From UHGV virus genome UHGV-1363354: a stretch of DNA of 40,302 bases. One strand, given 5' to 3'. The notes beneath the pieces are model-generated. The model was not told the origin of the DNA. It saw only the letters and a program-made list of their open reading frames with translations, and searched no databases. Below, one piece after another: positions 1 to 40,302 of this stretch (positions are counted from its first letter, which is position 1; every line of letters begins with the position of its first letter). This DNA is from a virus. The translations under genes and the position numbers were made by a program.

Positions 1-563
1 CCGCTCTCGGCTGCCGTACACAGGTCATAATAGTGGTTGAGGCCGTCTGGCACGCCGAGAAGCCAGCACCAGGCGCGATAATCCGGCCGGGTCGGGTTTA
101 CGGTGTTGAGCGCCGGGTAGATGTTTGCCTCCCACGACTCCGGCTTGATGTCGGCGAACTCGTCAATACCGCCGCCGGTCCAGGGGATACCCTCGATACG
201 CTGCGGCTTGTCCAGGCCGATAACGTGGATCTCCGACCCGTTAGGCAGGTAAATAATCAGGTCCGATTCAGACGGGCGCCGCGGGTGCGCGCAGGACAGG
301 GTGAAAGCTTTCAGGTCGTCCCAAAATATCTTTTTGGCCTGGGCGTGGGTCGGCGCCGCCGCGAAATACATCCCCGGGATCTTGAACGCCTGTTTTACCA
401 GAAAGCGCTTGAACCGCTCGGTTTTTCCGGAGCGGCGGCCGGCGGGCACCAGCGGAAACCGGATGCCGTCGGATACGGCCTTGATAAGTTTCAGCTGTAC
501 CGGGTGATCTTTCAATTCATACCATCGTGCGCGCTGGCGCTCCAGCAGTACGTTAACACTCAT
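1..563 (-). CDS. terL: Terminase large subunit, N-terminal ATPase part (ORF runs off the window start and continues at the window end)
   Basis: Minus-strand ORF with ATG at 561-563 overlapping the terS stop (ATGA). Translation MSVNVLLERQ...PAGRRSGKTERFKRFL (Walker A) ...GGGIDEFADI (Walker B). Open to position 3 with 2 nt left over. Confidence 0.8.
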   Translation of the reverse strand, partial: MSVNVLLERQRARWYELKDHPVQLKLIKAVSDGIRFPLVPAGRRSGKTERFKRFLVKQAFKIPGMYFAAAPTHAQAKKIFWDDLKAFTLSCAHPRRPSESDLIIYLPNGSEIHVIGLDKPQRIEGIPWTGGGIDEFADIKPESWEANIYPALNTVNPTRPDYRAWCWLLGVPDGLNHYYDLCTAAES

Positions 564-1078
564 GATGGCATTTTCCCGATCAGCTCCGCCAGCTGTTCGC
601 CGATATCGGCTTTATCTTTGCCCGGGTCTACCGGCTCGCGCATACCATGGTTGCATTTCAGGATGAAGGCTGCGCCGTTACCGCCTACACCCGCGGCGGA
701 TAGCTCCATGAGAAATGCTTTCTGCAGCGATTCTGCGTCGGCGTATGCGCGATCCCATTCAGGCCAGTGCTCGCGCCAGTTGCGCAGCGTATCACGGTTG
801 ACGCCGATCGACGCGGCGAAGCGCTCGAACGTCGGCAGCTTGCTTTGCGGGATCACCTGCGCAGTGCCTTTATCCGTGTAGTGGATAATCCAGGACGCCG
901 GCTCGGAGAAATAGCGCAGCAGCGCGCCGCAGTATTCCGGGCGGTAGTCGGTCGGTTTATCGTTGCTGCCGATGTCGTGCGGAAAGCGCTCGCCTTTCTT
1001 CCGTTTCGGCGGGACGCCCCGTAGATGTTTCGGCTTCGGCTTTAGATTCATATAACCCCCATTATGCTTGCGTACCAT
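560..1078 (-). CDS. terS: Terminase small subunit
   Basis: 172-aa ORF directly upstream of terL and translationally coupled to it. Basic N-terminus (KPKPKHLRGVPPKRKKGERF) plus helix-turn-helix-like core, typical of TerS. The true start may be the internal ATG near 1051, which has a GGGGG Shine-Dalgarno. Confidence 0.65.
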   Translation of the reverse strand: MVRKHNGGYMNLKPKPKHLRGVPPKRKKGERFPHDIGSNDKPTDYRPEYCGALLRYFSEPASWIIHYTDKGTAQVIPQSKLPTFERFAASIGVNRDTLRNWREHWPEWDRAYADAESLQKAFLMELSAAGVGGNGAAFILKCNHGMREPVDPGKDKADIGEQLAELIGKMPS

Positions 1079-9220: not shown

Positions 9221-9285
9221 TGTTTATATTTACTCCTGGTATTTATGACGCGCTTCTGGTAAAGCCTCTCCGTTTTGGATGAGGC

Positions 9286-10228: not shown

Positions 10229-10235
10229 CCGATCT

Positions 10236-10258: not shown

Positions 10259-10272
10259 TCAGGAGCAATTCT

Positions 10273-12064: not shown

Positions 12065-12142
12065 CATCTGCAACCAACTAAATTAACGTATTCATACCGG
12101 CCCGGCGGTTTCCGGGAGAATCGCAAAAAGTGAGAAACGAAA

Positions 12143-12898
12143 ATGGGAATCAAGGTAAATCTGAAAAAAGTTCGCATCGCATGGTTCTACGGCACCGAGA
12201 AAGCGAAAGCGCAGAATGACGGCGAAAAGGACGCATATCGCGTCGAAATTCTGGTTGACAAGGACGACCACAAAAGTATTGCCAAGCTGGACGAAGCGGC
12301 ATTGGCGGTAATGACCGAAGCGCTTAAATCAGAAAAGGCTGCCGAGAAGTGGCTTAAGCGCGAAAGCGGTCTCGAAGGCAATATCTCCAAAGATTGCGCC
12401 ATCAAAGACGGTGACGAGCGCGACACGGAAGATGAAAATTACGAGCACAAAATCTGGATCCGTGCCAAGTCGTATAAGCAGCCCCGCATCTTAACTGACC
12501 TGGGCGAAGAAACACGCGATGGTGAAGAAGACCTCGAAGGGAACGACCTCGAGGGTAAAGTGCCTTACGGCGGCTGCTTCGCCAACGTGTCGATCGAATT
12601 GTGGGGCCAGAATAACGACAAAGGCAAAGGCCTGCGCTGTAACTGGCTCGGCGTGAAATTCGTCGAAGATGGCGAAGCGTTCGGCGGCGGTGGGTCCAGC
12701 GAGCGCGCCAACGACGACGACCTGGATGACGATGATGAAGACGACGCACCGCGTCGCGGCAAGTCCAAGCCGAAACCGTCCCGCCGCTCCCGTGACGAGG
12801 ATGAAGACGAAGAGGATGAAAAACCCCGCCGTCGCCGTTCTCGCGATGAGGACGACGAAGACGAGGAAGAAGAGCGACCGCGCCGCCGTCGCCGCTAA
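12143..12898 (+). CDS. DUF2815-family (SSB-like OB-fold) protein with a long alternating acidic/Arg-rich C-terminal tail
   Basis: ...GGCFANVSIELWGQNNDKGKGLRCNWLGVKF core resembles DUF2815. The C-terminal 70 aa are DDDLDDDDEDD...RRSRDEDEDEEDEKPRRRRSRDEDDEDEEEERPRRRRR. Confidence 0.55.
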   Translation: MGIKVNLKKVRIAWFYGTEKAKAQNDGEKDAYRVEILVDKDDHKSIAKLDEAALAVMTEALKSEKAAEKWLKRESGLEGNISKDCAIKDGDERDTEDENYEHKIWIRAKSYKQPRILTDLGEETRDGEEDLEGNDLEGKVPYGGCFANVSIELWGQNNDKGKGLRCNWLGVKFVEDGEAFGGGGSSERANDDDLDDDDEDDAPRRGKSKPKPSRRSRDEDEDEEDEKPRRRRSRDEDDEDEEEERPRRRRR

Positions 12899-12904
12899 AA
12901 TCAA

Positions 12905-12927
12905 GGCCCGCGAAAGCGGGCTTTTTC
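12905..12927 (+). terminator. Intrinsic terminator GCCCGC-gaaa-GCGGGC + TTTTT
   Basis: Perfect stem and T-run just after the 12898 stop. Confidence 0.6.
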
Positions 12928-12945
12928 ATATCCGGAGCGTGAACC

Positions 12946-13134
12946 ATGTATAAACACAACCGAAACCGCCCCCATGAAACACGGATCCCCGTCGGTCTGC
13001 CGCTGGATGTCGACGGAGCCAGCGAATACTTAACTCTCCGTCTCGGCCGCAAAATGTACCTGCGAATCGTGGATACCGAGGAACAAGCCCGCCGGCGCAA
13101 AGCAATGACGGCAACCGACGAGGACCTGGAATGA
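12946..13134 (+). CDS. Hypothetical small basic protein (62 aa) ending ATDEDLE
   Basis: ORF-track ORF. Its last 24 nt are identical to the last 24 nt of the DUF2800 gene and overlap the polA start. Confidence 0.4.
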   Translation: MYKHNRNRPHETRIPVGLPLDVDGASEYLTLRLGRKMYLRIVDTEEQARRRKAMTATDEDLE

Positions 13135-15317
13135 AGTTCGATAACCTTTTTCTCGACACTGAAACATTCAGCGCCTGCGACCTGAAAAAATGTGGGTCAT
13201 ATGCTTATGCCGAGCATCCGTCCACCGAAATTATGATAACCACCTTCGCTATTGACGACGGCCCGGTTATGGAGTGGGATGCAACGGCAGACCCCCGGAT
13301 GCCGCGGGTATTGCGCCGGGCGCTGCGCGAGGTATGCAAGCAGAATACGAAGAGCCGGATTGTTATGCAAAACGGCCTTTTGTTCGATCGCCTTCTCATG
13401 CGCCATTGTTGGGGCATAGAGATCCCGGTAAAAAACAGCATCGATACGATGATCTGCGCCTACAGGCTGTCGCTTCCCGGCTCCCTGGACGCGCTATGCC
13501 GCGTTCTGGAGATATCCGAGGACTTAGCCAAGGATAAAGCCGGTAAAGCGCTGATACAGCGATTCTGTAAGCCTACGCCGAAAAATTACAAGATCCGCCG
13601 CTACACCCGCGAAACGCATCCGGAAGAGTGGCGCCGTTTTCTGAAATATGCCCGCAGCGATATATCGTCAATGCGTGAGGTGTTTTATGCGCTGCCGACG
13701 TGGGGCGATACTGAGAAGGAAAACGAGATACTCGCCATCGACCAGGCGATCAACGACCGCGGCTTTTACGTCGACATAGCGCTGGCCGAATCCGCCGTCG
13801 CCGCGGTTAAGCAGCACAAGCTGGACCTGCAGCGCGAGGCGATGGCTAAATACGGCGGCAGCCTGACCGGTAAGGACTTCCTCCCGATCCTGCGAGACCT
13901 GGCGCCCGCATTCGATATCCCTAACGCGCAGAAAGCAACCCTGGGCGATCTGCTGGACGACGAGGACCTGCCAGACGCCGCCCGGGCACTTATCGAAATG
14001 CGCCTCGGCGCTGCGTCCACCGCCTCCACCAAGTACGACCCGCTGCTGCGCGGCTTATCCAGCGACGGCCGGCGCCGCGGCTGTTTGCAGTATGGCGGCG
14101 CGAAAAGGACGCTGCGATGGGCGGGTAAAGGCTTCCAGCCGCAGAACCTGGCGCGCGGACATTACGAAGGCGAAGACCTTGATTACGGGATCCGTTGTCT
14201 TAAGCGCAACCGCATCACGAAGGCTTTCGACATCGCCAAGTTAACGGCAACCACGGTTCGCGGGTGCATTATCGCGGCGCCCGGATGCAAGCTGGTTGTT
14301 GCCGACTACTCGAACGTCGAAGGGCGCGGCCTGGCGTGGATATCCGGCGAAGAGGCGACGCTTAATGTTTTCCGGGCTGGTACGGACCTGTATAAGACGC
14401 TCGCGGCCACCGTGTTCTGCGTGTCGTATGACGACGTGTCGAAGGACCAGCGCCAGATCGCCAAGGCGATGATTCTCGGCCTGGGTTACGGTGGCGGCGT
14501 GGCGGCATTCCTGACGTTTGCCAAAAACCTCGGCCTAGACCTTGACCGGCTGGCGCACGACCTGGCGGGCACATTCCCGGACCATATCTGGAAGGCTGCG
14601 CGCCGGGGGTGGGAGTTTGCCCGCATCCAGGAGAAGAACAAGCGCGCTCCGAAGGGCAAGAAGGCCGAGCGCCCGTCGTATGACCTGCCGAAAAAGGTGT
14701 GGCTGACCTGTGACGCATTGAAACGCATGTACCGCGAGGCTAACCCGAATATCGTTAATTTCTGGGCCGAGCTGGAAGCGGCGGCATTGAGCGCGATCCG
14801 CAATCCTGGCCGGTCATTTTGGGCGGGCGCCCGAGTCCGTGAGAATGGCGACAAGGCCGTTAAGTTCACTCGCACAGTGAAAAACGGTAACCCGGGTTGG
14901 TGGCTTAAGGTTGAGCTGCCGTCTGGTCGCATCCTGTCGTATCCGGGGATCGGCCTGTCGGTCGAGAAAGAGGAAGACGAGGACACCGGCGAGATCCGCA
15001 CGCGTACCCGCATCAAATACCAGGGGGAGAACCAGACGACGCGCCAGTGGGGTTGGCAATATACCTATGGCGGCAAGCTGGCTGAAAACATCGTACAGGC
15101 CCTTTGCCGTGACCTGCTGGCCTGGTCAATGCCTGGCGTCGAGGCCGCCGGGTATAAGATTATTCTGTCCGTGCATGATGAACTTTTAACCGAAGTTCCC
15201 GACACGCCGGAGTACACCGTCAAAGAGCTGGAGCGCCTCATGTGCGTGCTGCCGGCATGGGCTAAAGACTTCCCATTGAGCGCTGAGGGTTGGGAGGGTC
15301 GGCGGTACAAGAAGTAG
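13131..15317 (+). CDS. polA: Family A DNA polymerase with N-terminal 3'-5' exonuclease
   Basis: Exo I LFLDTETFS. Pol motif A VVADYSNVEGRGLAW, motif B RQIAKAMILGLGYGGG, motif C LSVHDELLTEV. Confidence 0.9.
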   Translation: MKFDNLFLDTETFSACDLKKCGSYAYAEHPSTEIMITTFAIDDGPVMEWDATADPRMPRVLRRALREVCKQNTKSRIVMQNGLLFDRLLMRHCWGIEIPVKNSIDTMICAYRLSLPGSLDALCRVLEISEDLAKDKAGKALIQRFCKPTPKNYKIRRYTRETHPEEWRRFLKYARSDISSMREVFYALPTWGDTEKENEILAIDQAINDRGFYVDIALAESAVAAVKQHKLDLQREAMAKYGGSLTGKDFLPILRDLAPAFDIPNAQKATLGDLLDDEDLPDAARALIEMRLGAASTASTKYDPLLRGLSSDGRRRGCLQYGGAKRTLRWAGKGFQPQNLARGHYEGEDLDYGIRCLKRNRITKAFDIAKLTATTVRGCIIAAPGCKLVVADYSNVEGRGLAWISGEEATLNVFRAGTDLYKTLAATVFCVSYDDVSKDQRQIAKAMILGLGYGGGVAAFLTFAKNLGLDLDRLAHDLAGTFPDHIWKAARRGWEFARIQEKNKRAPKGKKAERPSYDLPKKVWLTCDALKRMYREANPNIVNFWAELEAAALSAIRNPGRSFWAGARVRENGDKAVKFTRTVKNGNPGWWLKVELPSGRILSYPGIGLSVEKEEDEDTGEIRTRTRIKYQGENQTTRQWGWQYTYGGKLAENIVQALCRDLLAWSMPGVEAAGYKIILSVHDELLTEVPDTPEYTVKELERLMCVLPAWAKDFPLSAEGWEGRRYKK

Positions 15318-15351
15318 AGAATACACCACAAACAAAAGAGGCCTACAAATT

Positions 15352-15747
15352 ATGAATGACATTATGCATTTCGTGAAACGGCAGAAGCTGAAATGGTTCA
15401 ACGCCACGCCATACCCGGCGCAAATAATCGTCTATATCCTTGGGGAAGATGAAAAGTTATTGAAGGCCATCCCCGATCACCCACCACTTGGCGAGGGCAC
15501 TAACGGCCGTTGTTGCTGGATGCAAAAGGATGGGTACAACATTATCACAATCGGCGTTAAGCGCGACCTGGGCGACTTTATGGCCGTTGCCGCGCATGAG
15601 TGTTATCACGCGATGAACGCGTGTTATGGCTGGTTCGGTGCGCAGCATGATACGGAGAACGACGAGCCAGGAGCCTACTTTCTGGGGCACATCATGCGTG
15701 AGTTTACGATCCGTTTCGCCGAATTGCTGGAGGAAACAAAGCCGTGA
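15352..15747 (+). CDS. Putative HExxH zinc metallopeptidase (SprT/Wss1-like)
   Basis: VAAHECYHAMNA motif in a 131-aa protein. Confidence 0.45.
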   Translation: MNDIMHFVKRQKLKWFNATPYPAQIIVYILGEDEKLLKAIPDHPPLGEGTNGRCCWMQKDGYNIITIGVKRDLGDFMAVAAHECYHAMNACYGWFGAQHDTENDEPGAYFLGHIMREFTIRFAELLEETKP

Positions 15748-16034
15748 CGCCGGAAGGACGCATACAGGCATACGCGATGGCCGAGTTTAAAAAGTTAGGG
15801 GCATTGGTGCGAAAGTTGAGGTATGAGGGGCGCAACGGGTGCCCCGATCTGCTGATCATTCTGCCCGGCGGCCTGGTGGTGTTCGTGGAGGTGAAGAAAG
15901 ACGAGCGCACCGGTCCTGACCCGCACCAGGCGCGCGAGCACGAACGAATGCGCAGTCGTGGCGCTCTGGTCTACACAGTCGGCAGCGAGGAACAGGTAAA
16001 CGAATTGGTTGCAGAATTGCGCTATAGTGTTTAG
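15744..16034 (+). CDS. VRR-NUC domain nuclease (PD-(D/E)XK)
   Basis: GCPDLLIILPGGLVVFVEVK core. Confidence 0.7.
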   Translation: MTPEGRIQAYAMAEFKKLGALVRKLRYEGRNGCPDLLIILPGGLVVFVEVKKDERTGPDPHQAREHERMRSRGALVYTVGSEEQVNELVAELRYSV

Positions 16035-16061
16035 TATGTTGGTTGCTAAGGAGGATACACC

Positions 16062-16325
16062 ATGCCTAAACCTAAACTGAGAAAGGCCGGCCGGGAGCTG
16101 GTAGAAAAATACGGGTCACTCTCCGCGGCCCCGGATGAGGCGCTCGCTGCCGTTACTAAGCGTTGCAACGGCCCGTGTCGTAAGCGCAAGCCATTAAGCG
16201 AGTTCCACCGTTACAGCGGGCGCAGCGTGGACGGTTTCCGCGCGGTCTGCAAACAATGCCGCCGGGAAGCCGAGCGCGAGCGCCAGCGGATCAAGAGAAA
16301 CCCGGTACAGGAAGAAACAGAATGA
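16062..16325 (+). CDS. Small zinc-finger protein (CNGPC...CKQC)
   Basis: RBS TAAGGAGG. The motif TTTAGTATGTTGGTTGC lies just upstream. Confidence 0.45.
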   Translation: MPKPKLRKAGRELVEKYGSLSAAPDEALAAVTKRCNGPCRKRKPLSEFHRYSGRSVDGFRAVCKQCRREAERERQRIKRNPVQEETE

Positions 16326-16501
16326 GAGTTTTAGCGGGAGCAATCAAACGTGGCGACGTGCTACAGGTTGGTGATGTTCTGGAAACTGTTTTCGATGCAT
16401 TCCGGTCACTCGACGCGCAGAAACAGGAGATCCGCGTTATCCAATTCGAGAGCGGGACCGTCATGATCCTGGAATATTCCGACATCGTGGAGCGCGTATG
16501 A
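16322..16501 (+). CDS. Hypothetical small protein (about 59 aa)
   Basis: ATGA-coupled to the upstream gene. Start MRVLAGAIKRGD. Confidence 0.35.
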   Translation: MRVLAGAIKRGDVLQVGDVLETVFDAFRSLDAQKQEIRVIQFESGTVMILEYSDIVERV

Positions 16502-16995
16502 AAAAACGGATAAATCTGGACCGCATAAAGAGCCTACTTAAGTATGACCCGAAGACTGGTATTTTTACTCGGCTTGTCTCTGTTAAAGGTCGAAACGCGG
16601 GTGATATTGCTGGATGTCTGTCGGACAGCGGATATGTAAATATCGTTGTTGATGGCGTGCGATTGAAAGGCCATCGTCTCGCGTGGGCTTTTGTCCACGG
16701 ATTCTATCCTGAATTCGAGATCGACCACAAAGATCGCAATCGGTCTAATAACGCTATTGACAATTTAAGACCTGCGACGCGAAGTCAGCAGATAGTAAAC
16801 CGCGATACTTCCGCCAGGAATACAAGTGGGGCGAAAGGGGTGTACATGCTGCCTTCCGGACGCTGGCGGGCTCGAATTTGTAAGGGCCGGAATTATATTC
16901 ATCTCGGTTATTTCGACTCCATGGCGGAGGCTGAATCAGTTTACAAAAAAGCCGCTTCTGAATTGTTCGGGGAGTTCGCCGATGTCACGATTTAA
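16498..16995 (+). CDS. HNH homing endonuclease with C-terminal AP2 DNA-binding domain (free-standing mobile endonuclease)
   Basis: HRLAWAFVHGFYPEFEIDHKDRNRSNNAIDNLR (HNH motif) plus SGAKGVYMLPSGRWRARICKGRNYIHLGYFDSMAEAESVYKKA (AP2 domain). Inserted immediately upstream of the helicase gene, overlapping its start. Confidence 0.8.
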   Translation: MKKRINLDRIKSLLKYDPKTGIFTRLVSVKGRNAGDIAGCLSDSGYVNIVVDGVRLKGHRLAWAFVHGFYPEFEIDHKDRNRSNNAIDNLRPATRSQQIVNRDTSARNTSGAKGVYMLPSGRWRARICKGRNYIHLGYFDSMAEAESVYKKAASELFGEFADVTI

Positions 16996-18403
16996 GCGAC
17001 GCCCTTACCAGCGGCAGATTACCCAATTCATGCTATCGCGTCCGCGTTGCAATATCTACGCGACTATGGGATCAGGAAAAACGAGCGCGACAATGTGGAC
17101 CCTGGACCGCCTGTTTCAGACTGGCGATCTCGTAGACGGCGAAGACCGCGTGCTTATCCTGGCGCCGCTGCGCGTCGCGTCCGGCACCTGGCCGGCCGAA
17201 CAGGAGAAATGGCAATTCCCTAACCTGCGCGTCGGTGACGCCACTGGCCCGGCCGCGCACCGCGTCGCCACGCTGGAAGAAGATTTTAACGTCATATGCC
17301 TTAATTACGAGTGCATAGAGTGGTTGACCGGGCTTTATGGTCCGGACGACTGGCCGTTTACCGTTATCGTTGCCGATGAGTCAACCAAGCTGAAATCGTA
17401 CAGGTCAAAGAGCGGCGGCAGCAAACGTGCGAAGGCATTAAGCCGGGTAGCATGGGGCCGCGTTAAGCGCTTCATCAATCTGACCGGTACGCCGTCGCCT
17501 AACGGGTTAAAGGACCTGTGGGGGCAAAACTGGTTTATCGACGCCGGCGAGCGCCTCGGGACGTCCTACGCGGCGTTTACTGATCGCTGGTTCATCACCG
17601 AGTCAAAAGGCGACCACCACGCCGCGAAGGGATACCGTCCGCGCAAAGGTGCCGACGATGAGATCCACCGGGCAATGAAAGATATTTCGTTGACGGTTGA
17701 CGCCGCCGAGTTCTTCGGCTGCGAAGAGCCAGTGCTTGTCCCGGTGCTGGTAGACCTGCCGAAGAAAGCCCGCAAGATTTATGACCAGATGGAAAAGGAG
17801 CTTTTCGCGGAACTGGAGAACGGCGAGGTAGAAGCGGCCAATGCGGCAGCCCGCACGTCCAAATGCCTGCAGATCGCCAGCGGCGCGGTATACGTCACCA
17901 ATGAAGACGGCGAGCGCTCCACCGAGTGGGAGAAAATCCACGATGCTAAATTGGACGCGCTGGACTCCATTATAGACGAGCTGGCGGGCGCCCCGCTTCT
18001 GGTGGCCTACCAGTACCGGCACGACCTGGCGCGCATCAAAAAACGGTTCCCGTTCGCCGAGGACCTTAAAAAAGGCGCTGCCGGTAATAAGCAGATCGAC
18101 CGCTGGAACGCAGGCAAGATCGACGTGTTGCTGGTCCACCCGGCATCGGCGGGTCATGGCCTTAACCTGCAGGATGGTGGCTGTCACCTGGCCTTCTTTA
18201 GTCCAACCTGGAATTTTGAGCATCACGCCCAGGTTATAGAACGTATAGGCCCGGTCCGCCAGATGCAATCCGGCCACCCGCGCCCTGTGTTTATCTATCT
18301 CATCCAGGCAAAAGGTACGTTAGATGAAGCTGTTGTTTCGCGTACCAGCGATAAAAAGTCAGTCCAGGATGTGCTAATGGAATACATGAAGAGGAAGAAA
18401 TGA
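16982..18403 (+). CDS. SNF2-family (SF2) DNA helicase
   Basis: LILAPLRVASGTWPAEQEKW, Walker B/DEAH-like VIVADESTKLKS, C-terminal helicase motifs. The track ORF begins at 16826; the likely start is MSRFKRRPYQRQ near 16982. Confidence 0.85.
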   Translation: MSRFKRRPYQRQITQFMLSRPRCNIYATMGSGKTSATMWTLDRLFQTGDLVDGEDRVLILAPLRVASGTWPAEQEKWQFPNLRVGDATGPAAHRVATLEEDFNVICLNYECIEWLTGLYGPDDWPFTVIVADESTKLKSYRSKSGGSKRAKALSRVAWGRVKRFINLTGTPSPNGLKDLWGQNWFIDAGERLGTSYAAFTDRWFITESKGDHHAAKGYRPRKGADDEIHRAMKDISLTVDAAEFFGCEEPVLVPVLVDLPKKARKIYDQMEKELFAELENGEVEAANAAARTSKCLQIASGAVYVTNEDGERSTEWEKIHDAKLDALDSIIDELAGAPLLVAYQYRHDLARIKKRFPFAEDLKKGAAGNKQIDRWNAGKIDVLLVHPASAGHGLNLQDGGCHLAFFSPTWNFEHHAQVIERIGPVRQMQSGHPRPVFIYLIQAKGTLDEAVVSRTSDKKSVQDVLMEYMKRKK

Positions 18404-18897
18404 GAGATCATTTGCTGTTGCGCGGGCTTGACCCGTCTTTATACCGCGTCTGGTTGTCGGATACGTGCGCCACCTTTCCTTTGTGGGGCTTCGATGGTCG
18501 TTTAAGAGGTTTCCAGCAGTACCGGCCTTCTGCACCAAAGAAAAGCGAAAGGCCGTCAGAAGGGAGGTACTTCACATGGTCGAGTGCTCCCTCTGTGTGG
18601 GGGCTGGATACGCTACCCAGCCACGGCGTTGTGTTTGTTTGTGAAAGTATCTTCAAGGCCGTGGCGGCACATCGCGCGGGGTTCAACGCGATATCCGCCA
18701 ATGGGTCGTCGCTGGCTCCATCTTTGCAGGGTCAAATGATGCTTATGACGCAATACCGGTTTATCTGTGTCGGGGACGATGACGCGGCCGGGCTAAAATT
18801 CAGCAAAACATTCGGCAAGGGTGCTACCGCTCCAGACCTCGACGAATTACCTTTGTGTTTAGTACAAAAGTTACTAACGGAAGCGTGCTATGGCTGA
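18400..18897 (+). CDS. TOPRIM-like domain protein (putative primase/nuclease-related)
   Basis: Conserved Glu (VFVCESIFKA) followed by DxD (ICVGDDDAAG) with TOPRIM-like spacing. Confidence 0.35.
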   Translation: MRDHLLLRGLDPSLYRVWLSDTCATFPLWGFDGRLRGFQQYRPSAPKKSERPSEGRYFTWSSAPSVWGLDTLPSHGVVFVCESIFKAVAAHRAGFNAISANGSSLAPSLQGQMMLMTQYRFICVGDDDAAGLKFSKTFGKGATAPDLDELPLCLVQKLLTEACYG

Positions 18898-19381
18898 CAA
18901 ATCAAACACGGCTCCGGAGGATAAGGACTGCTGGCGCTCACCACCGGAGATATTCGAGCCGCTGAATGAGCGGTTTAATTTCCGCTATGACATGGCGGCA
19001 GCAGATCACAATGCACTTTGCGCACGGTACTACACGGAACAGAATAGCGCCCTGGGTATCGAGTGGCCCGCAGCATGGAAATGGTGTAACCCGCCATACT
19101 CGAAGCCGCTGCCTTGGTTCCAGCACGCCGCGCAGTACCGGAAAACGGTGTTGCTCCTGCACCTGGCCGTCGCTACGCAGTGGATGGATATTGCGCGCCG
19201 GGAGGCGAATACCATCATTCAGCTGACAGAGCGCATTCAGTTTATCCACGCCAGGACCGGCGAGCGCGCGGCGACGAAGAACAACCGCGACTCGGAGATC
19301 ATCATCTTTGGCCGTCGGCCTAACCCTGACGGCGCGCGCATCGTCCAGTGCTCGATCGCGGATATCGCAAAATATCTATAA
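18890..19381 (+). CDS. dam: Phage-type DNA N6-adenine methyltransferase (Dam)
   Basis: DMAAADHNALCARYYT and catalytic NPPY (WCNPPYSK) motifs. Confidence 0.8.
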   Translation: MADKSNTAPEDKDCWRSPPEIFEPLNERFNFRYDMAAADHNALCARYYTEQNSALGIEWPAAWKWCNPPYSKPLPWFQHAAQYRKTVLLLHLAVATQWMDIARREANTIIQLTERIQFIHARTGERAATKNNRDSEIIIFGRRPNPDGARIVQCSIADIAKYL

Positions 19382-19417
19382 ATGTTGGTTGCAATATTAG
19401 CGAAGTCATATTATATT
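19382..19417 (+). promoter_or_regulatory. Promoter (c): ATGTTGGTTGCAAT - 17 - TATATT
   Basis: -35 TTGCAA at 19389-19394 and -10 TATATT at 19412-19417. About 80% identical over 58 bp to the promoter at 35462. Confidence 0.5.
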
Positions 19418-19436
19418 TAGTTCATAGGGCGGCGCG

Positions 19437-19637
19437 GTGCCGCAGATGATCGAGGAAAAGATGATGAAACCAAACCAGAAAGCCGCTTTATGGCGTAAGA
19501 TAGAAGATTACGCCGCTGCAATGGTCGCGGACTCATGGAAAGGGGCCGGGGACCCAGAGGATTATGAATCGCTTGTCCGCGGTCTGGAAGAAGCCAAAAA
19601 CGAATTAAGTAACTATATAGAGAAGTTGTCATCTTAA
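19437..19637 (+). CDS. Hypothetical small protein (66 aa)
   Basis: First gene of the promoter-(c) cassette. Followed by a GGCCCCgcaaGGGGCC hairpin. Confidence 0.45.
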   Translation: MPQMIEEKMMKPNQKAALWRKIEDYAAAMVADSWKGAGDPEDYESLVRGLEEAKNELSNYIEKLSS

Positions 19638-19677
19638 TAACAGGCCCCGCAAGGGGCCACTTGCAGGAGCAAACACA

Positions 19678-19893
19678 ATGAAACGTATTACCGCAATCGC
19701 AATCACTCTGGCCGCCGTCCTGGGCTGCTCGTATGTCGGGTCTGCCGCTGCCGTCACTCCGGTAGAAATGTGCCAGGAGTTAGCCGAAATGGGTGGCGTT
19801 ATCGTTGACGCCCGGAACCGCGGCGATTCGCTGGAAAACGAACCAGCATTATCAACGGCAGCGATATGGTCCCAAGCCTTAAAGCCGGCATGA
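19678..19893 (+). CDS. Small lipoprotein (candidate Cor/Llp-like superinfection-exclusion protein)
   Basis: MKRITAIAITLAAVLGCSY is a signal peptide with an LGC lipobox. Located next to the tail fibre genes. A 35-aa ORF (19890-19997) is ATGA-coupled downstream. Confidence 0.45.
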   Translation: MKRITAIAITLAAVLGCSYVGSAAAVTPVEMCQELAEMGGVIVDARNRGDSLENEPALSTAAIWSQALKPA

Positions 19894-20001
19894 CGCGCAT
19901 CGCCGTTACGATTTACAGCAATCCATCGCTGAAACGCGCCGACGTCGTGGCGTATGGGTTTAAAGGTTGTATCGACGGAATGTCGGATGGTATGTGAGAA
20001 A

Positions 20002-20025
20002 AGGGCCTTGCGGCCCTTTTTTTTA
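20002..20025. terminator. Bidirectional intrinsic terminator between the convergent rightward and leftward operons
   Basis: AAAAGGGCCttgcGGCCCTTTTTTTT. Perfect stem flanked by an A-run and a T8 run. Confidence 0.7.
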
Positions 20026-20277
20026 TATTTCAGAAACGCCATTGTCTTTTCGCAGGGCGTTTATCGACTCCAGTAATTCCGGATATCGGACGCATAAGCC
20101 CCGTATGTAGTCGTAGAAAAAATCATTTCGTCCTTTATTCTCGCCTTTTATGCTCTGGAATGCAGAAAATACCTCATCTTTACTATTTCCGGATAAGAAC
20201 GCGGTGACAATATCATCGACGCTAAATCCGGAGTAACCCGCGATTGGTAAAACAAAATTAATATTCATGACGTCCAC
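20023..20277 (-). CDS. Hypothetical protein downstream of the tailspike (84 aa; possible fibre assembly/accessory protein)
   Basis: Overlaps the tailspike stop. Last gene of the leftward operon. Confidence 0.4.
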   Translation of the reverse strand: MDVMNINFVLPIAGYSGFSVDDIVTAFLSGNSKDEVFSAFQSIKGENKGRNDFFYDYIRGLCVRYPELLESINALRKDNGVSEI

Positions 20278-22568
20278 CTTGCGAAAATCTGAATAGACCT
20301 GTTAGCTGCTGCCGTCAAGGTTAACGCTGGCGCCGAACTTCCCGGCCAGGTTAGCGCCAACGTCTCCGACGAAATGGCGTGCGACACCGAATAAGCCACA
20401 ACCTTTGAAGCGTCTACGGAAGCCACTGTGCCTTTTAAAACCTTAGTTGCGAATTTAGTGCCTTGATAGCTTGATCCATCTGCAAGGCGTAATCCTGCGT
20501 CGATTTCAACGACTCCATGTAATGGCGACAAGCCTCTACTAATACCTATTTGATACGCTACACCAGGAGTGCAATTAAGCAGGATCTCAGACCACATATA
20601 CGTCCCTTGCGAATAAGTAAGGCCAGTGCCTAAGGGTCCGGATTTCTCCCCGAAAGATAATGTGTTAAACCGAGGTACTGATGGCCTGAAATCGTGCGAT
20701 GAAATATCATTCTCAAGCGTCACCTCGCCGGCAGCAAAAGACCCGCTCGCGGTAAGATTTAAACCGGTATAAGTGCCGACGTTGCCAAGAGATAGCCGTC
20801 TAAGATCGTTTAATCCATACTCGAAAACGCCAGCAGACGCCGGGGCGCTGTTATCTTCAACGCGGACTGCGGCAGCTTTAGTATCTGTCTGGTCGCCGTG
20901 TAGGCAAAATATCGCGCGGAAATTGGAGGTAAGGTTGCCGTTTACAGTACCAATCTCTGAGTCATACACGGAGCAAGTAGGGCCGCAGACAAAAGCGTAA
21001 CGATTACCCGAAATAACCATAGGACCAATCTGGGTCCTTGCAAATGAGTTTTGCCCGGTATTAGCACCGTTGATATATTCCCGGTTAAATCGAATAAATT
21101 CGCGGTTATTTGCCGATTTAGGCATAATAAATCGGTTGTTCTCAGACCACGCCGTCATATTAAGCATATGCACCGCCGGTCCGTAAAAACCATCAATGGC
21201 AATAGCGCCATCAAACAACGCATGATTAAGGTCTTCGCAGCGAAGCCCACCAAAAGCGTTCGAATTTTTGTTTACTATACGAAGGTTGTTACAGATTAAA
21301 CTCCCGTGGGCTATCGCAGTCCCTGCCTGCTTAAGTAATATAGGGTAAAACGCTTCTCGGACATCAACCTCGTTAACAACGCAAGCAGTCGGCGTCACCG
21401 AATACGTATCATCCCTTAATTCTAAAACGTGGCTGGTAGCCGTGGCTGTAAATGCGGCATACCTTGCAGCGGGCCCGGATTCATTGGAATTCGATATTGC
21501 TACACCGTCAAGCCGCACGCGGAGAGTACCTTTCGAGGTATATGTCTCAGAAACAACGCTAACCGCGTATTTTTTCCCTACAGTCAGCCCAGTTAATGTT
21601 ATGCTGGCGGACGCTTGTGCGGCGGTAGTACCTGCAAAAACAAGAGTCGACCCCGATAAAGTCACTCCGTTAGCCAGAGTCCATCCGGTAAACGTCTTGT
21701 CATTTAGTATCAGAGATCCGCCATAAGACATAATCTGGGCGCCACTAAAATCGATATATTTATTAGCTTCGTTCACGCTGGCCGTCTTATTCACGGTCAC
21801 TGTTGCGTTGAGGGCGTACTGCCCCCTGCCACCCATTGACATCCCGGCAGCGCCGCGGGTGACCATCTCATTAACACATCTCTGAAAAGCCGCGTAATCT
21901 ATGGATTGCGTTAATGATGTTACAAAAGGGTAATCTACCTGAGCAAGTGCAAGCGAGGCATATCGCTCAGACAATGGATGCACCGTGCCGTCGGCAATAG
22001 CTCCGAAATCGTAAGGAGTCATCTGGAAATTCAGCTTATAACCTACGGTGCCGCGGTTAAATGCCTGTAAAATGCTGTAACCGATAAGCCCTGGGCCCGT
22101 AACCGCGGCCATTTCCTGCCGTAGCGCTGCATCCCCTACGCTTACAAAATGCAATGAGTCCGCGGCCCATGTTGTAGAGTTGGTACCCGTCGTGGTGAAA
22201 GGCGGCGTGGTTGAGGCATTCAGCCGCCACAATTCACCATTGTAGCGTAAAACCTGATTAAGAGACGATAGCGTTATAATCCCGGAGGTATAATCCCCCA
22301 TGAATTGATACCCGGAAGCCAGCAAAAAATTCTGGAAAGCATTTTCTTGCGAGGTTAATTGGTCTTCAAAAGCAAGTTCCGCATCCCGCATAATAGCGGG
22401 CATTGTTTTTTGGTCCTGGTCGGTCACCGGATTATTAGCGGTGTCGATAGCCACCCCGGAAGGGACCCCGCCGGCGTGCCCGGTGATTACTTCGGCCTCG
22501 AAAACCTGGTGTTTTTTGGCCGTTTTCAGATCTTCCAGCGATAAGACGTCGCCGCATCCGCTTGACAT
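20265..22568 (-). CDS. Tailspike / tail fibre with a predicted right-handed beta-helix, a receptor-binding or depolymerase candidate
   Basis: 767 aa. The N-terminal roughly 130 aa are anchor-like. The central region is rich in short N/G/S/T-containing beta-strand repeats (NNLRIVNKNSNAFGG...ISGNRYAFVCG). Confidence 0.65.
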   Translation of the reverse strand: MSSGCGDVLSLEDLKTAKKHQVFEAEVITGHAGGVPSGVAIDTANNPVTDQDQKTMPAIMRDAELAFEDQLTSQENAFQNFLLASGYQFMGDYTSGIITLSSLNQVLRYNGELWRLNASTTPPFTTTGTNSTTWAADSLHFVSVGDAALRQEMAAVTGPGLIGYSILQAFNRGTVGYKLNFQMTPYDFGAIADGTVHPLSERYASLALAQVDYPFVTSLTQSIDYAAFQRCVNEMVTRGAAGMSMGGRGQYALNATVTVNKTASVNEANKYIDFSGAQIMSYGGSLILNDKTFTGWTLANGVTLSGSTLVFAGTTAAQASASITLTGLTVGKKYAVSVVSETYTSKGTLRVRLDGVAISNSNESGPAARYAAFTATATSHVLELRDDTYSVTPTACVVNEVDVREAFYPILLKQAGTAIAHGSLICNNLRIVNKNSNAFGGLRCEDLNHALFDGAIAIDGFYGPAVHMLNMTAWSENNRFIMPKSANNREFIRFNREYINGANTGQNSFARTQIGPMVISGNRYAFVCGPTCSVYDSEIGTVNGNLTSNFRAIFCLHGDQTDTKAAAVRVEDNSAPASAGVFEYGLNDLRRLSLGNVGTYTGLNLTASGSFAAGEVTLENDISSHDFRPSVPRFNTLSFGEKSGPLGTGLTYSQGTYMWSEILLNCTPGVAYQIGISRGLSPLHGVVEIDAGLRLADGSSYQGTKFATKVLKGTVASVDASKVVAYSVSHAISSETLALTWPGSSAPALTLTAAANRSIQIFARWTS

Positions 22569-33437: not shown

Positions 33438-33695
33438 TTATTCCTCCGGCTGTTCGGCGGATTTGTTGCGGCGTGCTTTGCGTGCCGGTTTGTCGGTGTC
33501 GCCCTGGATGGTAACAGTGCGCTCCACGCCGTCGGCATGGGTTTCGATAACCGCATCGGCTGGTGCAAAGCGCGCGTCAACGACACGAAAGCCCTGGCGG
33601 TGATATTCTTTCTTCTGCTCGACCGTAATCGGCATTACGACGTATTTGACTTCTAACATAACGGCTCCAGTTAATAAGGGGGCCGAAGCCCCCAC
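33438..33695 (-). CDS. Hypothetical small structural/accessory protein
   Basis: Immediately downstream of the major capsid gene. Confidence 0.35.
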   Translation of the reverse strand: MGASAPLLTGAVMLEVKYVVMPITVEQKKEYHRQGFRVVDARFAPADAVIETHADGVERTVTIQGDTDKPARKARRNKSAEQPEE

Positions 33696-34670: not shown

Positions 34671-35366
34671 TTAACCCTTATTTTCTGCGTCGAGACGCTT
34701 ACGGAGATCGGCACGAGTTTTTTCGATGCCTGTCAGTTGCTCGCCACCGGCCCCGCCAGTAGGATTTTTGTTCCCGGCGGCCCCGCCACCGTTCGCTGTG
34801 TCTGCCTGCATGAGATGAGAGATCACCTTATGCTTTTTACAGAAGTTGATGAATTTATCGACGTCCGTCGTAATAACTGCGCCGTCCGGGCCGACAAACT
34901 TAGTCACCAGATCATCGCCGTCGAACTCGACTTTGATAAATGGCGCGATAAGGTCGGCGGCTTCGGCGTCAATGAATTTGCCTTTAGCAATCACGGCACC
35001 CATAACGGCTTTGCGCTCGCTGCCGAGGATGCGCTCGGCCAGCTTGGTGATCTTACCGTCTTTCTCGGCGATCACCGGGTCATACTGACCACGAATCGAT
35101 TTTTCGAACTCTTCCATTTGCCCGGACTGCTTCGCCGCTTCCTGCTGCGCGCGAACACGTTCGGCTTCGGCTTCCTTCGCACGTTGTGCGGCTTTCTTCT
35201 TCTCGTCAAGAAGTGCTGTATTCTGGTTTTTCAGGCCATTAACCAGCTCGTCGACTTCTGCCTGGGTGTAGGTCTTTGGTGGTTCCGCACCGCCACCCCC
35301 GCCCTGGGTTCCGTCGTCATGTTCTTCTTGGTACGCGAAAAGGAAAGACTGTAAAAAACGATTCAT
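34671..35366 (-). CDS. Scaffolding protein
   Basis: Acidic, coiled-coil-rich (KAAQRAKEAEAERVRAQQEAAKQSGQMEEFEKSIRG). The track ORF extends to 35489. The upstream part overlaps promoter (d), so the MNRF start near 35366 is more plausible, though no clear Shine-Dalgarno is present. Confidence 0.5.
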   Translation of the reverse strand: MNRFLQSFLFAYQEEHDDGTQGGGGGAEPPKTYTQAEVDELVNGLKNQNTALLDEKKKAAQRAKEAEAERVRAQQEAAKQSGQMEEFEKSIRGQYDPVIAEKDGKITKLAERILGSERKAVMGAVIAKGKFIDAEAADLIAPFIKVEFDGDDLVTKFVGPDGAVITTDVDKFINFCKKHKVISHLMQADTANGGGAAGNKNPTGGAGGEQLTGIEKTRADLRKRLDAENKG

Positions 35367-35461
35367 AGTACGTAGACCCCTGGTCTTTATGAATCCGGGC
35401 CACCCGGATTTACATACGCTAAATATACAGGGCAGCGCAAGTATTAACAATATATCTGTAA

Positions 35462-35497
35462 ATGTTGGTTGCAATATGAGTGGAGACATATTACAGT
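35462..35497 (+). promoter_or_regulatory. Promoter (d): ATGTTGGTTGCAAT - 17 - TACAGT, a near-duplicate of promoter (c)
   Basis: -35 TTGCAA at 35469-35474 and -10 at 35492-35497, followed by the conserved TTAGTTCAT. Confidence 0.5.
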
Positions 35498-36838: not shown

Positions 36839-37903
36839 TTACGAGTTCCCGGCCAGATATTTGGCGACCCGGGAATCTACTTCCGCCATCTCTTTCAGGG
36901 TCAGAGGACGGCCGAAACCATCAATTGACGCAGCGCGGAACTCTTCCGGGGTCATGCCGCTGTTACGTAAAATTGCCCCTCTCGTTGGCCCAATCGCCTG
37001 ATCCTGGAACCACGCCGGCTGGCTTTTAAGAAACTCATAATACGACGTGTTAGCATCGACCTGCATACCCCCATCGGCGCCACGCGCCGCACGCATCGCC
37101 CCTTCATCGAGGAAGGATAAGAAATCGTCGTCAATAACGGGGGCTGTGGTAGTTCGGCAGCGCGGGTGGAATGGCGGCAGCGGACCCTTACCTACTGGGA
37201 ACACCTGGGAGTCGAGCCCGCGACACGTTGCCGACGTTCTGCCGTCCAGCGTGGCAACTATTCGATATTTAGAAACGATATCATCGTTGGCCTTGTACAG
37301 CTCGTCGCGGGCCACATTCGAAACGTGGGCTACCCCGGTATGCGCGATAGTGAAAGCATCGCGTAGCGAAATATCCGCCAGGCCTCCCGCGCCGACAGTT
37401 TGCTGCACGATCTGCCTGGTTGTCATGCCCTGCACAAAGCCGCTCTGTACACCTCGCGCCAGGCGGTTCTTCTCTGACGTTGTCCAGCCGTCCAGCAAGT
37501 CAATCAGGCCCACAGGCTTATCGTTAAGCGACAAAGGCACGAATTTAACCGCGGACCATAACTCATCTGCGGTAGGCCCGGACACGAACGATCGTTTTTC
37601 TTCCCGCAGATTATCCGTCAGCGTATGACGAAACCACTTATTTTCATAATCGGCGATCTCTTTTAGGCTTTTCTCGATAGTAGACTTCCAGTCCCCGGTA
37701 ACATCATCGAGTACGCTCTCAAGAGAGGCGAGCATTTTATTCAACTTCTTTACCGTCCTGGCGTCGTCACCAAAGGCCTGCACAGCCTCTTTAACTTCCG
37801 CTTTCATACGGATAACGAACGGGATAGACAGGGACGCTGTCTGCGTCCCAAGTCTTTGAAGCCATATTTGATGGCTAATGATGTTTTGCTCCAGCTTACT
37901 CAT
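36839..37903 (-). CDS. Head morphogenesis protein (Mu F / SPP1 gp7 family)
   Basis: ATLDGRTSATCRGLDSQVFPVGKGPLPPFHPRCRTT motif. Immediately downstream of the portal gene. Confidence 0.75.
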   Translation of the reverse strand: MSKLEQNIISHQIWLQRLGTQTASLSIPFVIRMKAEVKEAVQAFGDDARTVKKLNKMLASLESVLDDVTGDWKSTIEKSLKEIADYENKWFRHTLTDNLREEKRSFVSGPTADELWSAVKFVPLSLNDKPVGLIDLLDGWTTSEKNRLARGVQSGFVQGMTTRQIVQQTVGAGGLADISLRDAFTIAHTGVAHVSNVARDELYKANDDIVSKYRIVATLDGRTSATCRGLDSQVFPVGKGPLPPFHPRCRTTTAPVIDDDFLSFLDEGAMRAARGADGGMQVDANTSYYEFLKSQPAWFQDQAIGPTRGAILRNSGMTPEEFRAASIDGFGRPLTLKEMAEVDSRVAKYLAGNS

Positions 37904-39387
37904 CAGGCCTCCGATTCAGGTTGTGGCTGTGTAGCCGTCGCCGGAATTTCAGCCGTTGCGGTAGCCAGCGCCTGAATTGGCTGATTAGCAATGGCGTCCT
38001 GAATCTGTTCGTTGGTCCAGTTGGTAACCCCGGCCTCGCGCAGCGCCTCATAGTACGCCGTAGCAGGAAGATAACCGGCGTTGATGTCGGAGACCCATGC
38101 AGCGCGGTCCTGCGCGGTCATCGACTTAAGGAAGAATTCCATATTCAGCTTAAATTCAATATCCGTAGCGTCGACGTTAAGCATACCGGCAACCCACTTA
38201 AGCGCGTCGGTGTATGCCTGGCTGACGTTGCGGGCGATAGTAGCCATAACCGAGGTATCCGCCCCGCGCTGGATGCGCGCCGCTTCTGCGGTGATCTGCA
38301 CTGTCGGGGTGATCAGCTGGGCGCCGATCTGCACGGCTTGTTGTTCCTTGTCCAGCATATTCTGCTTAGCGAGGTTATTTTCCGCTGCCTGGATTAAATC
38401 CGCGGTACCACCGGCGCCAATATTATGACCGGTACGCGAGCCCATCTTAACGCCGTTGGGGTTAGCCGCTTTGAAGTTCTCCAGGCTCATAGACTCGCCC
38501 GGGCTAATGAACAGGGTTGGCTGGCCGACAACAAAACTCGACTCCTCGTTATCCGCACTGTTTCGGAAGTGCCCAATGTTCAGCTCGGCGAGCGGCAGGA
38601 TCGGCGGGTCGTCCGGCGTGTGGTCGTTGTTGGATGCGCCGATGAACGTAAATGGGATGATCCCCGCCGGGACGCCGGCCAGATTTGGGAAAATCTCTCT
38701 AATGGCCCCGGCCAATGCGCCTTTAGCATCAAACTGGTAGATTCGCTGCCGATATTTTCCCTCGAAGATATCGAGGACGCGATATTGCTCGCCATAATTC
38801 GGGCTGAATTCATCGCCACCGCTGTCGTATTCATAGACTTCGCGCAGCACGATCAGCGATACACGGTTTACTGATCCTACCCGGGTCCGGCGCCAGTTAA
38901 TGATATTTTCGGCAGTATAGAAAACGATGACCGGGTTTAATAATCCCTCGTTTTGTTCCGCCATCGTCGCGGCGCCGGTTTCCGGTGCATCTACCAGCAG
39001 GCCACCGCGCCCGATGGAGTCGATCTCCATAAGGGTATCCTGCGCATGCTGCCACAGGCCAACGCCGGACCCATCGCAGTTAGTCAGCAGATATTCCAGC
39101 TGCGGCGGGATCGTCTGTTCGGGGTCTTTGCGCATAACGCTGCCGACCATCCCGGATAGCGTCCGCTTGGTGAAGTTGTAGCAGATCGCGCCATCTTCAT
39201 ACTCGCGTTGGCGCTGCTTACCGTATTCCGGGTCGCCTTCGTTTTTACCTACATTGCGCAGGTATTCCTTAAGCTCGCCGGCGATAGCGTTCCGCACCTT
39301 CTTCCACTTAGGAGCGTATTTCTCGTAATCCGGATGCAGCGTTTTTACGTTCTGCCCTGCGCCGGCGTTAATGTTTGCGTTAACCAT
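37903..39387 (-). CDS. Portal protein
   Basis: 494 aa, directly after terL and the small ORF. Acidic C-terminus. Confidence 0.75.
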   Translation of the reverse strand: MVNANINAGAGQNVKTLHPDYEKYAPKWKKVRNAIAGELKEYLRNVGKNEGDPEYGKQRQREYEDGAICYNFTKRTLSGMVGSVMRKDPEQTIPPQLEYLLTNCDGSGVGLWQHAQDTLMEIDSIGRGGLLVDAPETGAATMAEQNEGLLNPVIVFYTAENIINWRRTRVGSVNRVSLIVLREVYEYDSGGDEFSPNYGEQYRVLDIFEGKYRQRIYQFDAKGALAGAIREIFPNLAGVPAGIIPFTFIGASNNDHTPDDPPILPLAELNIGHFRNSADNEESSFVVGQPTLFISPGESMSLENFKAANPNGVKMGSRTGHNIGAGGTADLIQAAENNLAKQNMLDKEQQAVQIGAQLITPTVQITAEAARIQRGADTSVMATIARNVSQAYTDALKWVAGMLNVDATDIEFKLNMEFFLKSMTAQDRAAWVSDINAGYLPATAYYEALREAGVTNWTNEQIQDAIANQPIQALATATAEIPATATQPQPESEA

Positions 39388-39533
39388 CGTCGCGGTCCTC
39401 GCTGTCCACTAAATCTTTGACTGCGGTTTGTATTTCCGCGGGCAAATCGTCGAAGTGGGCTGCAAGCAGTTCAATAAGATTCTTGACCGGCTCCAGGTCT
39501 ACTACGCGGATGTCCATCGTTAATTTAGTCATG
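39380..39533 (-). CDS. Small hypothetical protein between terL and portal (about 50 aa)
   Basis: MTKLTMDIRVVDLEPVKNLIELLAAHFDDLPAEIQ... Overlaps the portal start. Confidence 0.35.
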
Positions 39534-39545
39534 TTAAACCTCGTC

Positions 39546-40302
39546 TTAAAGCGGGAAAGAAACCGGGATCTGTTCAGGTGCATCATAGCTGACCGGGAAC
39601 ATGTAATCGATAAAATATCCGATCGCCGTCGTAATGTGCTGGTACTGGTTCTTTTGGTCTTCCTGGAATGCCGATCCCTGCTGCAGCTGTACCGTCGCCA
39701 GGCCTTTATGGCTCCAGGGCGCCGTTTGCGGGTTAACATACAGGCTTATATGGTCATCTGCGGTGCGTATCTTGGCGCGTACCGCGTTTTGACGGTCCTT
39801 GATCGCCGGGTGCGCCGTCTTAACCCGGCGGGTGTACGTCCACCCGTTCGCCGATAGCACATCCTCGATGTCGTTATAGTCGGACTTGTGGCCGTGCTTT
39901 TCCCCCGCGCGCCCGGCGGGGTCGCCGTAAATGAAAACGTGCTTGTTCTGGTGATCTTTGAACTTCTCCACGAACTCTTTAGCCGACTGCTTCGACACCG
40001 CACTAATCAGCACTATCTCGTCGAGGATATAGACATCATCACCGCGGATAACGGCAACCGATGACGAGAGCGGCGTAAAGTTTTGGTCGTGCATCCAGTG
40101 CAATGATTCATGCGGGAAAATAGTTGCGTTCGTGTAGTTGTCCTTGGAATAGTCCTCGTAAATCTTGCCGTTCGCCGTCTCGAATGAAGCCCGAAATTCT
40201 TGGTTATATTGCTTCTTCGACATTATCTTGCGCGCTTCGGCGGCCATTTCCGGGAAAATTTCCTCGGTCATCCAGTGGAAAACCGCGTAATCCGACGAAA
40301 CG
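39546..40302 (-). CDS. terL: Terminase large subunit, C-terminal nuclease part (ORF open to the window end)
   Basis: VFIYGDPAGRAGEKHGHKSDYNDIEDVL and VYILDEIVLI are typical of the terminase nuclease/ATPase-coupling region. The reading frame is open through 40302. Confidence 0.8.
   Translation of the reverse strand, partial: VSSDYAVFHWMTEEIFPEMAAEARKIMSKKQYNQEFRASFETANGKIYEDYSKDNYTNATIFPHESLHWMHDQNFTPLSSSVAVIRGDDVYILDEIVLISAVSKQSAKEFVEKFKDHQNKHVFIYGDPAGRAGEKHGHKSDYNDIEDVLSANGWTYTRRVKTAHPAIKDRQNAVRAKIRTADDHISLYVNPQTAPWSHKGLATVQLQQGSAFQEDQKNQYQHITTAIGYFIDYMFPVSYDAPEQIPVSFPL

Follow-up and report, generated by a model that had tools for sequence, protein, structure and literature searches.

The window, by which we mean the whole stretch of 40,302 bp (55% G+C) that was analysed, both begins and ends inside one gene on the minus strand. 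This terminase gene, TerL, is split into a 5′ part at the start of the window and a 3′ part at its end, with the portal gene following the 3′ part and the gene for the small terminase, TerS, preceding the 5′ part (Table 1). An earlier note, made from the letters alone, had read the two ORFs as one TerL split across both window ends, and all the TerL coordinates it gave (start at 563, reading down to position 3, stop at 39546-39548) are correct. The joined reverse complement (39546..40302 + 1..563) is a single ORF of 1320 nt that encodes 439 amino acids plus stop and contains no internal stop codon, in agreement with the continuous protein of about 440 aa that had been proposed. The in-frame GGC expected at the 40302-to-1 junction is found as well: positions 2, 1 and 40302 form the codon of Gly188. 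The TerS stop codon (562-560) and the start ATG of TerL overlap in the sequence ATGA. What looks like two ORFs is a single intact TerL, and the join is exact to the base.

Table 1. Features of the packaging region on either side of the window ends (window coordinates)
Feature	Position	Strand	Remarks
TerL 5′ part	1..563	-	start 563-561; 187 complete codons to position 3, plus 2 bases of Gly188
Walker A	420-443	-	AGRRSGKT, residues 41-48; TerL 5′ part
Aligned arginine-finger region	195-218	-	GLDKPQRI; TerL 5′ part
Walker B	153-176	-	GGGIDEFA, residues 130-137; TerL 5′ part
C-motif	42-59	-	LGVPDG; TerL 5′ part
TerL 3′ part	39546..40302	-	last base of Gly188 (40302), 251 codons, TAA stop 39548-39546
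Conserved motifs of the TerL 3′ part		-	HDQNF at residue 259, YGDPAG at 313, KDRQN at 356; region matching phrog_10250
TerL C-terminal tail	39546..39569	-	IPVSFPL plus stop; identical to the VLCpiS11a TerL tail
TerS	560..1078	-	probable start 1051 (163 aa, as annotated in 37P2); phrog_3064, E=2.7e-42
TerS C-terminal tail	560..628	-	DPGKDKADIGEQLAELIGKMPS plus stop; unlike the TerS of VLCpiS11a and of Jerseyviruses
50-aa acidic ORF	39380..39532	-	MTKLTMDIRVVDLEPVKNLIELLAAHFDDLPAEIQTAVKDLVDSEDRDDG; 146-nt insert between TerL stop and portal start
Portal gene	37903..39387	-	494 aa; 98% identical to 37P2, 89% to VLCpiS11a, ~71-74% to Jerseyvirus portal

The joined TerL carries Walker A and Walker B motifs in its N-terminal part, as an ATPase should, and the order given in the earlier note (Walker A, Walker B, nuclease) is reproduced insofar as the Walker motifs are followed by a C-terminal half that matches a TerL family, phrog_10250 (residues 212-427, E=8.6e-12). 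A second PHROGs TerL family, phrog_2, matches residues 17-321 and spans the join. In Pfam the joined protein matches Terminase_6N, a class named for T4-like terminases, over residues 41-140 with 27.7 bits (cut-off 22), and the same search gave no match to the lambda GpA or HK97-type terminase families; none of the cos-type terminase families match the window TerL. Searching the PDB with the single sequence retrieved T4 gp17 only, at a marginal E=0.095, and significance was reached only with a profile of 28 TerL sequences, positions 15-231 of which align to the ATPase domain of P74-26 TerL (4ZNI) with E=8e-8; in this profile search T4 gp17 scored E=6e-4 and Sf6 gp2 E=0.2. As the profile alignment covers residue 188, the window break lies inside the ATPase domain of TerL. 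The nearest solved relatives by profile are P74-26 TerL and T4 gp17, with which Walker A, the arginine-finger region, Walker B and the C-motif all align (the Walker motifs to GRQSGKSE and LDEA in P74-26 and to IDEC in T4 gp17), but the window TerL is very distant from both and the significant alignment is confined to the ATPase domain.

The 3′ part of the gene encodes the last portion of the ATPase domain, then the stretch that matches phrog_10250 and finally the C-terminal tail. Residues D260, D357 and D403 are invariant, and D315 nearly so, across the 28 TerLs, which include the 24%-identical Jersey type. For the putative nuclease domain, no Pfam nuclease-domain match was obtained and no solved nuclease structure was matched by sequence.

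The same locus is found uninterrupted in other genomes. A tblastn search against GenBank phages identified in Klebsiella phage 37P2 an annotated, uninterrupted terminase that is 98.6% identical to the joined TerL over 100% of the query, in one piece. At the nucleotide level, the joined TerL and the 37P2 gene are of equal length and align over 1320 of 1320 nt, ungapped, with 94.8% identity, so that the translation and alignment proposed as a check in the earlier note return one full-length terminase. Window base 1 corresponds in this alignment to 37P2 position 5320 and window base 40301 to position 5318, with 40302 mismatched opposite 5319. The exact 36-mer spanning the join is present inside an IMG/VR contig (L003), where the adjacent bases are those of window 1 and 40302. 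Adjacent bases also align to window 1 and 40302 in three UViGs from one metagenome (L004-L006), and in a fourth (L007) the alignment picks up one base on, at 40301. The TerLs of these four UViGs are 98-99% identical to that of the window, with DNA identities of 93-96% across the TerL gene and ~88-91% over all aligned blocks; an uninterrupted TerL homologue is encoded at 80 further IMG/VR loci. Contiguity across the junction in five independent genomes implies that no bases have been lost or duplicated there. Both window halves of the gene are under purifying selection, the codon changes relative to 37P2 being 59 synonymous and 6 non-synonymous. No terminal direct repeat of at least 8 nt was found at the window ends, and the closure therefore follows from gene continuity and homologues, not from an assembler overlap; the overlap of the window was presumably trimmed.

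Beyond TerL, 84% of the window aligns to 37P2, the two running collinear for exactly one lap, and collinearity with Klebsiella phage VLCpiS11a extends over 70%. The gene inventory was made by annotation transfer from relatives, and every core gene listed was found once. It comprises packaging and head genes (TerS, TerL, portal, head-morphogenesis protein, scaffold, major capsid protein and connectors), tail genes (tail tube, chaperone, tape measure, minor tail proteins, tail fibre and tail spike), lysis genes (holins, endolysin and spanin) and replication genes (primase-helicase, exonuclease, Gp2.5-like SSB, DNA polymerase I, helicase and methyltransferase). The window-specific ORFs match DUF551, Ead/Ea22, Toprim/primase and tail-spike families. 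The other ORFs of at least 150 aa are shadow ORFs that lie inside assigned genes, either wholly or, in two cases, to 93-96%, and the largest gap between assigned genes is 676 nt. Scans for tRNA genes and Rfam families gave no matches. On the closed circle, the minus-strand genes form one unbroken array that extends from 9522 through the join to ~20,000, in the leftward order early genes, lysis, TerS, TerL, portal, head and tail, and closing the circle restores the canonical TerS-TerL-portal order. The 50-aa acidic ORF located between TerL and the portal gene occurs only in the window and in 37P2, and is missing from the four closest UViGs and from VLCpiS11a.

The earlier reading of the window as a complete, circularly closing genome is upheld by the one-lap collinearity with 37P2, the single-copy core genes and the adjacency of the two ends in independent genomes. 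The small terminase it invoked is the TerS gene directly upstream of TerL, and the absence of an integrase, which it also reported, is borne out by the lack of any recombinase family match among the window-specific ORFs. The window thus has neither the integrase nor the site-specific recombinase by which a temperate phage would be recognised, and the absence of an integrase establishes virulent as the predicted lifestyle.

The closest relatives are 37P2 and VLCpiS11a. Of these, 37P2 (ON107243; Guernseyvirinae, isolated from wastewater in Taiwan) is mostly 88-95% identical at the DNA level, with tape-measure and tail/head blocks at 78-83%. The window and 37P2 have in common the TerL, an identical TerS (100%), the portal (98%) and the 50-aa ORF between TerL and portal, whereas 37P2 has another tail-spike module (window 20025-22380) and other small accessory genes, differs in its HNH/Toprim/Ead insertions, and has a unit length of 38,977 bp against 40,302 bp. 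VLCpiS11a (NC_069154; Guernseyvirinae) has the same backbone and synteny, with identities of 98% for the primase-helicase, 98% for the DNA polymerase, 89% for the portal and 87% for TerS. In size (~39-43 kb), synteny and genus-level similarity the window falls within the Guernseyvirinae-like group of 37P2 and VLCpiS11a. The window phage is a new species-level relative of 37P2.

Several modules vary within this group. The tail-spike gene (20265-22568, minus strand) has ~62 N-terminal residues in common with 37P2 and VLCpiS11a and a body unrelated to theirs, and the tail-spike region shows ~90% DNA identity to RCIP0071 and BUCT610, two Klebsiella phages of ~46 kb. A receptor-binding or depolymerase module has been exchanged here, probably with a change in capsule specificity. 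Variable insertion slots flank the helicase gene (window 16498-16995 and 18400-18897, plus strand). The upstream slot holds an HNH endonuclease in both the window and VLCpiS11a, while the downstream slot holds a 165-aa Toprim/primase-like ORF (phrog_849) in the window, an extra methyltransferase in VLCpiS11a and an HNH endonuclease in 37P2. A segment of ~250 nt (4922-5180), inside the Ead/Ea22-like ORF at 4500-5183 (minus strand), is 95-96% identical to many Klebsiella plasmids, where its counterparts are Ead/Ea22-like and hypothetical genes; it is the sole plasmid match for bases 1-20000 and is consistent with a Klebsiella host. Metagenome 3300045988 contains at least four distinct co-occurring relatives (L004-L007) of 40.0-42.7 kb, with TerLs 98-99% identical. 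Three of the four are ~81-84% identical in DNA to the window across the portal, tail and head genes; the portal DNA of L006 is 94.5% identical, and one of the four (L007) closes with a 119-nt overlap.

We also noticed that the records of the relatives are opened at different places. The GenBank records of 37P2 and VLCpiS11a each carry an exact terminal direct repeat of 127 nt. These repeats are untrimmed assembler overlaps, which gives true unit lengths of 38,977 bp for 37P2 and 39,664 bp for VLCpiS11a. In the 37P2 record the opening falls within the scaffolding gene, in that of VLCpiS11a at the TerS/TerL boundary. UViG IMGVR_UViG_3300045988_062153 (L007, L088, L089) has its 119-nt overlap with the break at ~window 33,444-33,560 and its TerL intact; UViG ...071173 has no terminal overlap. 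A concentration of the relatives' breaks around TerS/TerL, a possible sign of a pac-related end, was considered and rejected from the contig coordinates: the break points lie at ~window 1, 560, 2,000, 31,000, 33,500, 34,755 and others more than 10 kb from TerL. The choice of origin has left its mark on the annotations. The VLCpiS11a TerL, at the cut, is shortened at its N-terminus and labelled 'hypothetical protein'. The 37P2 annotation is without a scaffold protein, an antisense ORF at 76..621 (L001 76-621) having been called instead as 'hypothetical protein'; window 34671-35489 (minus strand) matches the VLCpiS11a scaffolding protein at 92%, with the antisense counterpart at 34737-35354 (plus strand).

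These results show that the assembly was circular and was cut open arbitrarily inside TerL codon 188, in the ATPase domain; joining base 40302 to base 1 gives back the 439-aa TerL and the continuous leftward gene array. That the frame closes by coincidence or through an assembly artefact, the ends not being adjacent or bases being missing or duplicated at the join, has practically no probability left: the chance of frame closure by itself is 1 in 3 and the window ends have no overlap in common, but neither circumstance stands up to the 1320-nt ungapped alignment with an intact homologous gene in 37P2, the contiguity of five independent genomes with adjacent coordinates across the join, and the purifying selection visible on both TerL halves. 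A circle could also be a real replicon, that is, a plasmid-like episome or an excised prophage instead of a virulent phage genome. Positions 9286-9522 encode a Cro/CI-type HTH protein of 78 aa, and some contigs with the same TerL type measure 50-90 kb and have numeric-form IMG/VR identifiers, which we take to denote isolate genomes. We nevertheless hold a replicon of this kind to be very improbable. The window has neither an integrase or recombinase nor a plasmid gene for partition or replication initiation, and for bases 1-20000 no plasmid record reaches a match of more than 1%. The window encodes its own DNA polymerase, primase-helicase and lysis cassette, and its nearest relatives are phages of the Guernseyvirinae isolated as plaques from wastewater, soil and water.

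With regard to packaging, the term 'circular genome' refers to the circular map only; the packaged DNA is linear. By analogy with relatives, it is likely that the virion DNA is packaged by the headful mechanism and circularly permuted, in which case TerS and TerL would cut concatemers in the headful (pac) mode into linear, terminally redundant, permuted molecules, the assembly of which would close. Headful packaging has been assigned from long reads to Stenotrophomonas phage CUB19 (PMC9612306), the TerL of which is 74% identical to that of the window over 96% of its length. Pac packaging was predicted by PhageTerm for coliphage Shashou, which is similar to Guernseyvirinae (PMC6776780), and Jerseyviruses have been reported as circularly permuted (PMC10608910). 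An alternative is a complete genome that has defined ends in the virion (cos or short direct terminal repeats) at some other place on the map; concatemer or junction reads, or the collapse of repeats, would then account for the circle without any permutation. Chi-type cos phages have also given circular assemblies and genes that span contig ends (PMC9409062), which means that a circle does not prove permutation, and for MMDA13, with the same TerL type, a circular assembly could not separate DTR from permuted ends (PMC7472734). We regard defined ends as unlikely, however, because CUB19 is the nearest experimentally examined TerL relative, Jerseyviruses and Shashou point the same way as far as reported, no lambda GpA or HK97-type family is matched, an HNH endonuclease beside the terminase genes, of the kind seen in HK97-like cos systems, is absent, and the assembly break points of the relatives are scattered.

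Two groups have noted that the packaging class of this TerL type is not assignable by TerL phylogeny alone, and that such TerLs do not cluster with the classical reference terminases (PMC9612306, PMC7472734). In the literature on DoCa3, MiCath and PAJD-1, phages with a TerL of this type, genome ends are not mentioned; no paper mentioning VLCpiS11a was found, and none combining 'Nipunavirus' with 'headful'. The window has in common with the headful systems of P22, SPP1 and Sf6 the TerS-TerL-portal order, a circular map and no fixed-end signature, but headful packaging is only inferred for the window phage, and its TerL is not closely related to theirs (Sf6 gp2, E=0.2). The window is the complete, arbitrarily opened unit genome of a virulent, Guernseyvirinae-related Klebsiella siphovirus, and the full account, which adds a probable headful packaging mechanism and an acquired TerL, is likely.

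The acquired nature of TerL emerges from its comparison with VLCpiS11a, to the TerL of which it is 24.4% identical. The VLCpiS11a protein belongs to the canonical Jerseyvirus type, with 83-88% identity to its counterparts in Salmonella Jerseyviruses, whereas the window TerL is 70-75% identical to the TerLs of PaMx25, CUB19 and Silvergun (residues ~4-425) and ~24% to the Jerseyvirus type represented by VSt10 and VLCpiS11a. It is not an orthologue of the Jerseyvirus/Kagunavirus TerL and, on these identities, is a non-orthologous replacement of the PaMx25/CUB19 type. PaMx25 (Nipunavirus), Stenotrophomonas phage CUB19 and Acinetobacter phage Silvergun have the TerS tail motif LIxKLP[SNG] in common with the window, but their genomes of 48-58 kb are unrelated, as are their portals, and their TerL tails are different; the PaMx25 portal is ~25% identical to window-type portals and the CUB19 portal gave no match.

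The limits of the exchange can be located by alignment with VLCpiS11a. DNA homology ends in TerS just past ...NHGMREP and restarts in the patch GTTTCTTTCCCGCTxTAAGACGAGG, 20 nt ahead of the TerL stop. The exchanged segment comprises ~22 C-terminal TerS codons and TerL minus its last 7 codons (window 39546..40302 + 1..631), with its counterpart in VLCpiS11a (L002) at 38496-39767 and 78-161. A further non-homologous, insert-bearing stretch separates window and VLCpiS11a from the TerL stop to the portal start. The TerS tail resembles those that accompany the PaMx25/CUB19-type TerL, DIGEQLAELIGKMPS being of the CUB19 kind (DIGDVIRDLIAKLPG), and would be a TerL-binding tail exchanged together with TerL. 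At the other end, IPVSFPL is of the Jerseyvirus kind; it is the longest identical run between the window and VLCpiS11a TerLs, the next longest being 3 residues, and would be a portal-docking peptide.

We surveyed these tails at 80 IMG/VR loci (L004-L083) together with the window, 37P2, PaMx25 (L084) and CUB19 (L086). Of the 80 ORFs found to stop where such a TerL begins, 75 have L[IVA]x[KR][LMA]P[SNGDV] as their last residues. The TerL body is 75-99% identical across the 80 loci, and the C-terminal tails of 12-15 aa vary with the family of the downstream portal: tail identity is 0.17, 0.32, 0.58 and 0.97 at portal identities of <0.3, 0.3-0.5, 0.5-0.8 and >0.8, respectively, while TerL-body identity stays at 0.79-0.97 over the four bins. 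With body identity fixed at 0.8-0.9, tail identity is 0.45 for related and 0.16 for unrelated portals (nominal P 1e-19, from non-independent pairs), and in some locus pairs the TerL bodies are 100% identical, the portals 25% identical and the tails different. The Mantel partial correlation of tail with portal identity, controlling for TerL-body identity, is weak (0.16) because most pairs have unrelated portals, and it is the binned and body-matched comparisons that are informative.

The C-terminus of TerS binds TerL in lambda and P22 (PMC9611059), and that of TerL binds the portal in T3, lambda, SPP1 and P22 (PMC13595956); the tail pattern seen here fits these documented contacts. TerL itself is a horizontally acquired motor of the PaMx25/CUB19 type placed in a Jerseyvirus-type packaging module. 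On balance we favour a natural domain swap, in which a PaMx25/CUB19-type TerL body and the last ~22 TerS residues would have replaced the resident Jerseyvirus-type ones, the DNA-recognition body of TerS and the IPVSFPL peptide would have stayed with the portal, and the tails would serve as adaptors. That terminase genes move horizontally between Klebsiella phages is on record (PMC11769527).

It is routine for the arbitrary origin of a circular phage assembly to fall within a gene and split it. The record is best treated as complete and re-opened outside a gene (e.g. TerS), so that TerL is annotated whole; its GenBank relatives show like damage, with a truncated TerL in one and a lost scaffolding gene in the other. 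The combination of a virulent lifestyle with a probable headful mechanism is relevant to Klebsiella therapy, since headful packagers can perform generalised transduction. If the tails are contact peptides, they would provide a comparative map of the adaptors that let packaging motors move between unrelated capsids, an observation that extends known principles, overturns none, and could guide the engineering of chimeric packaging motors.
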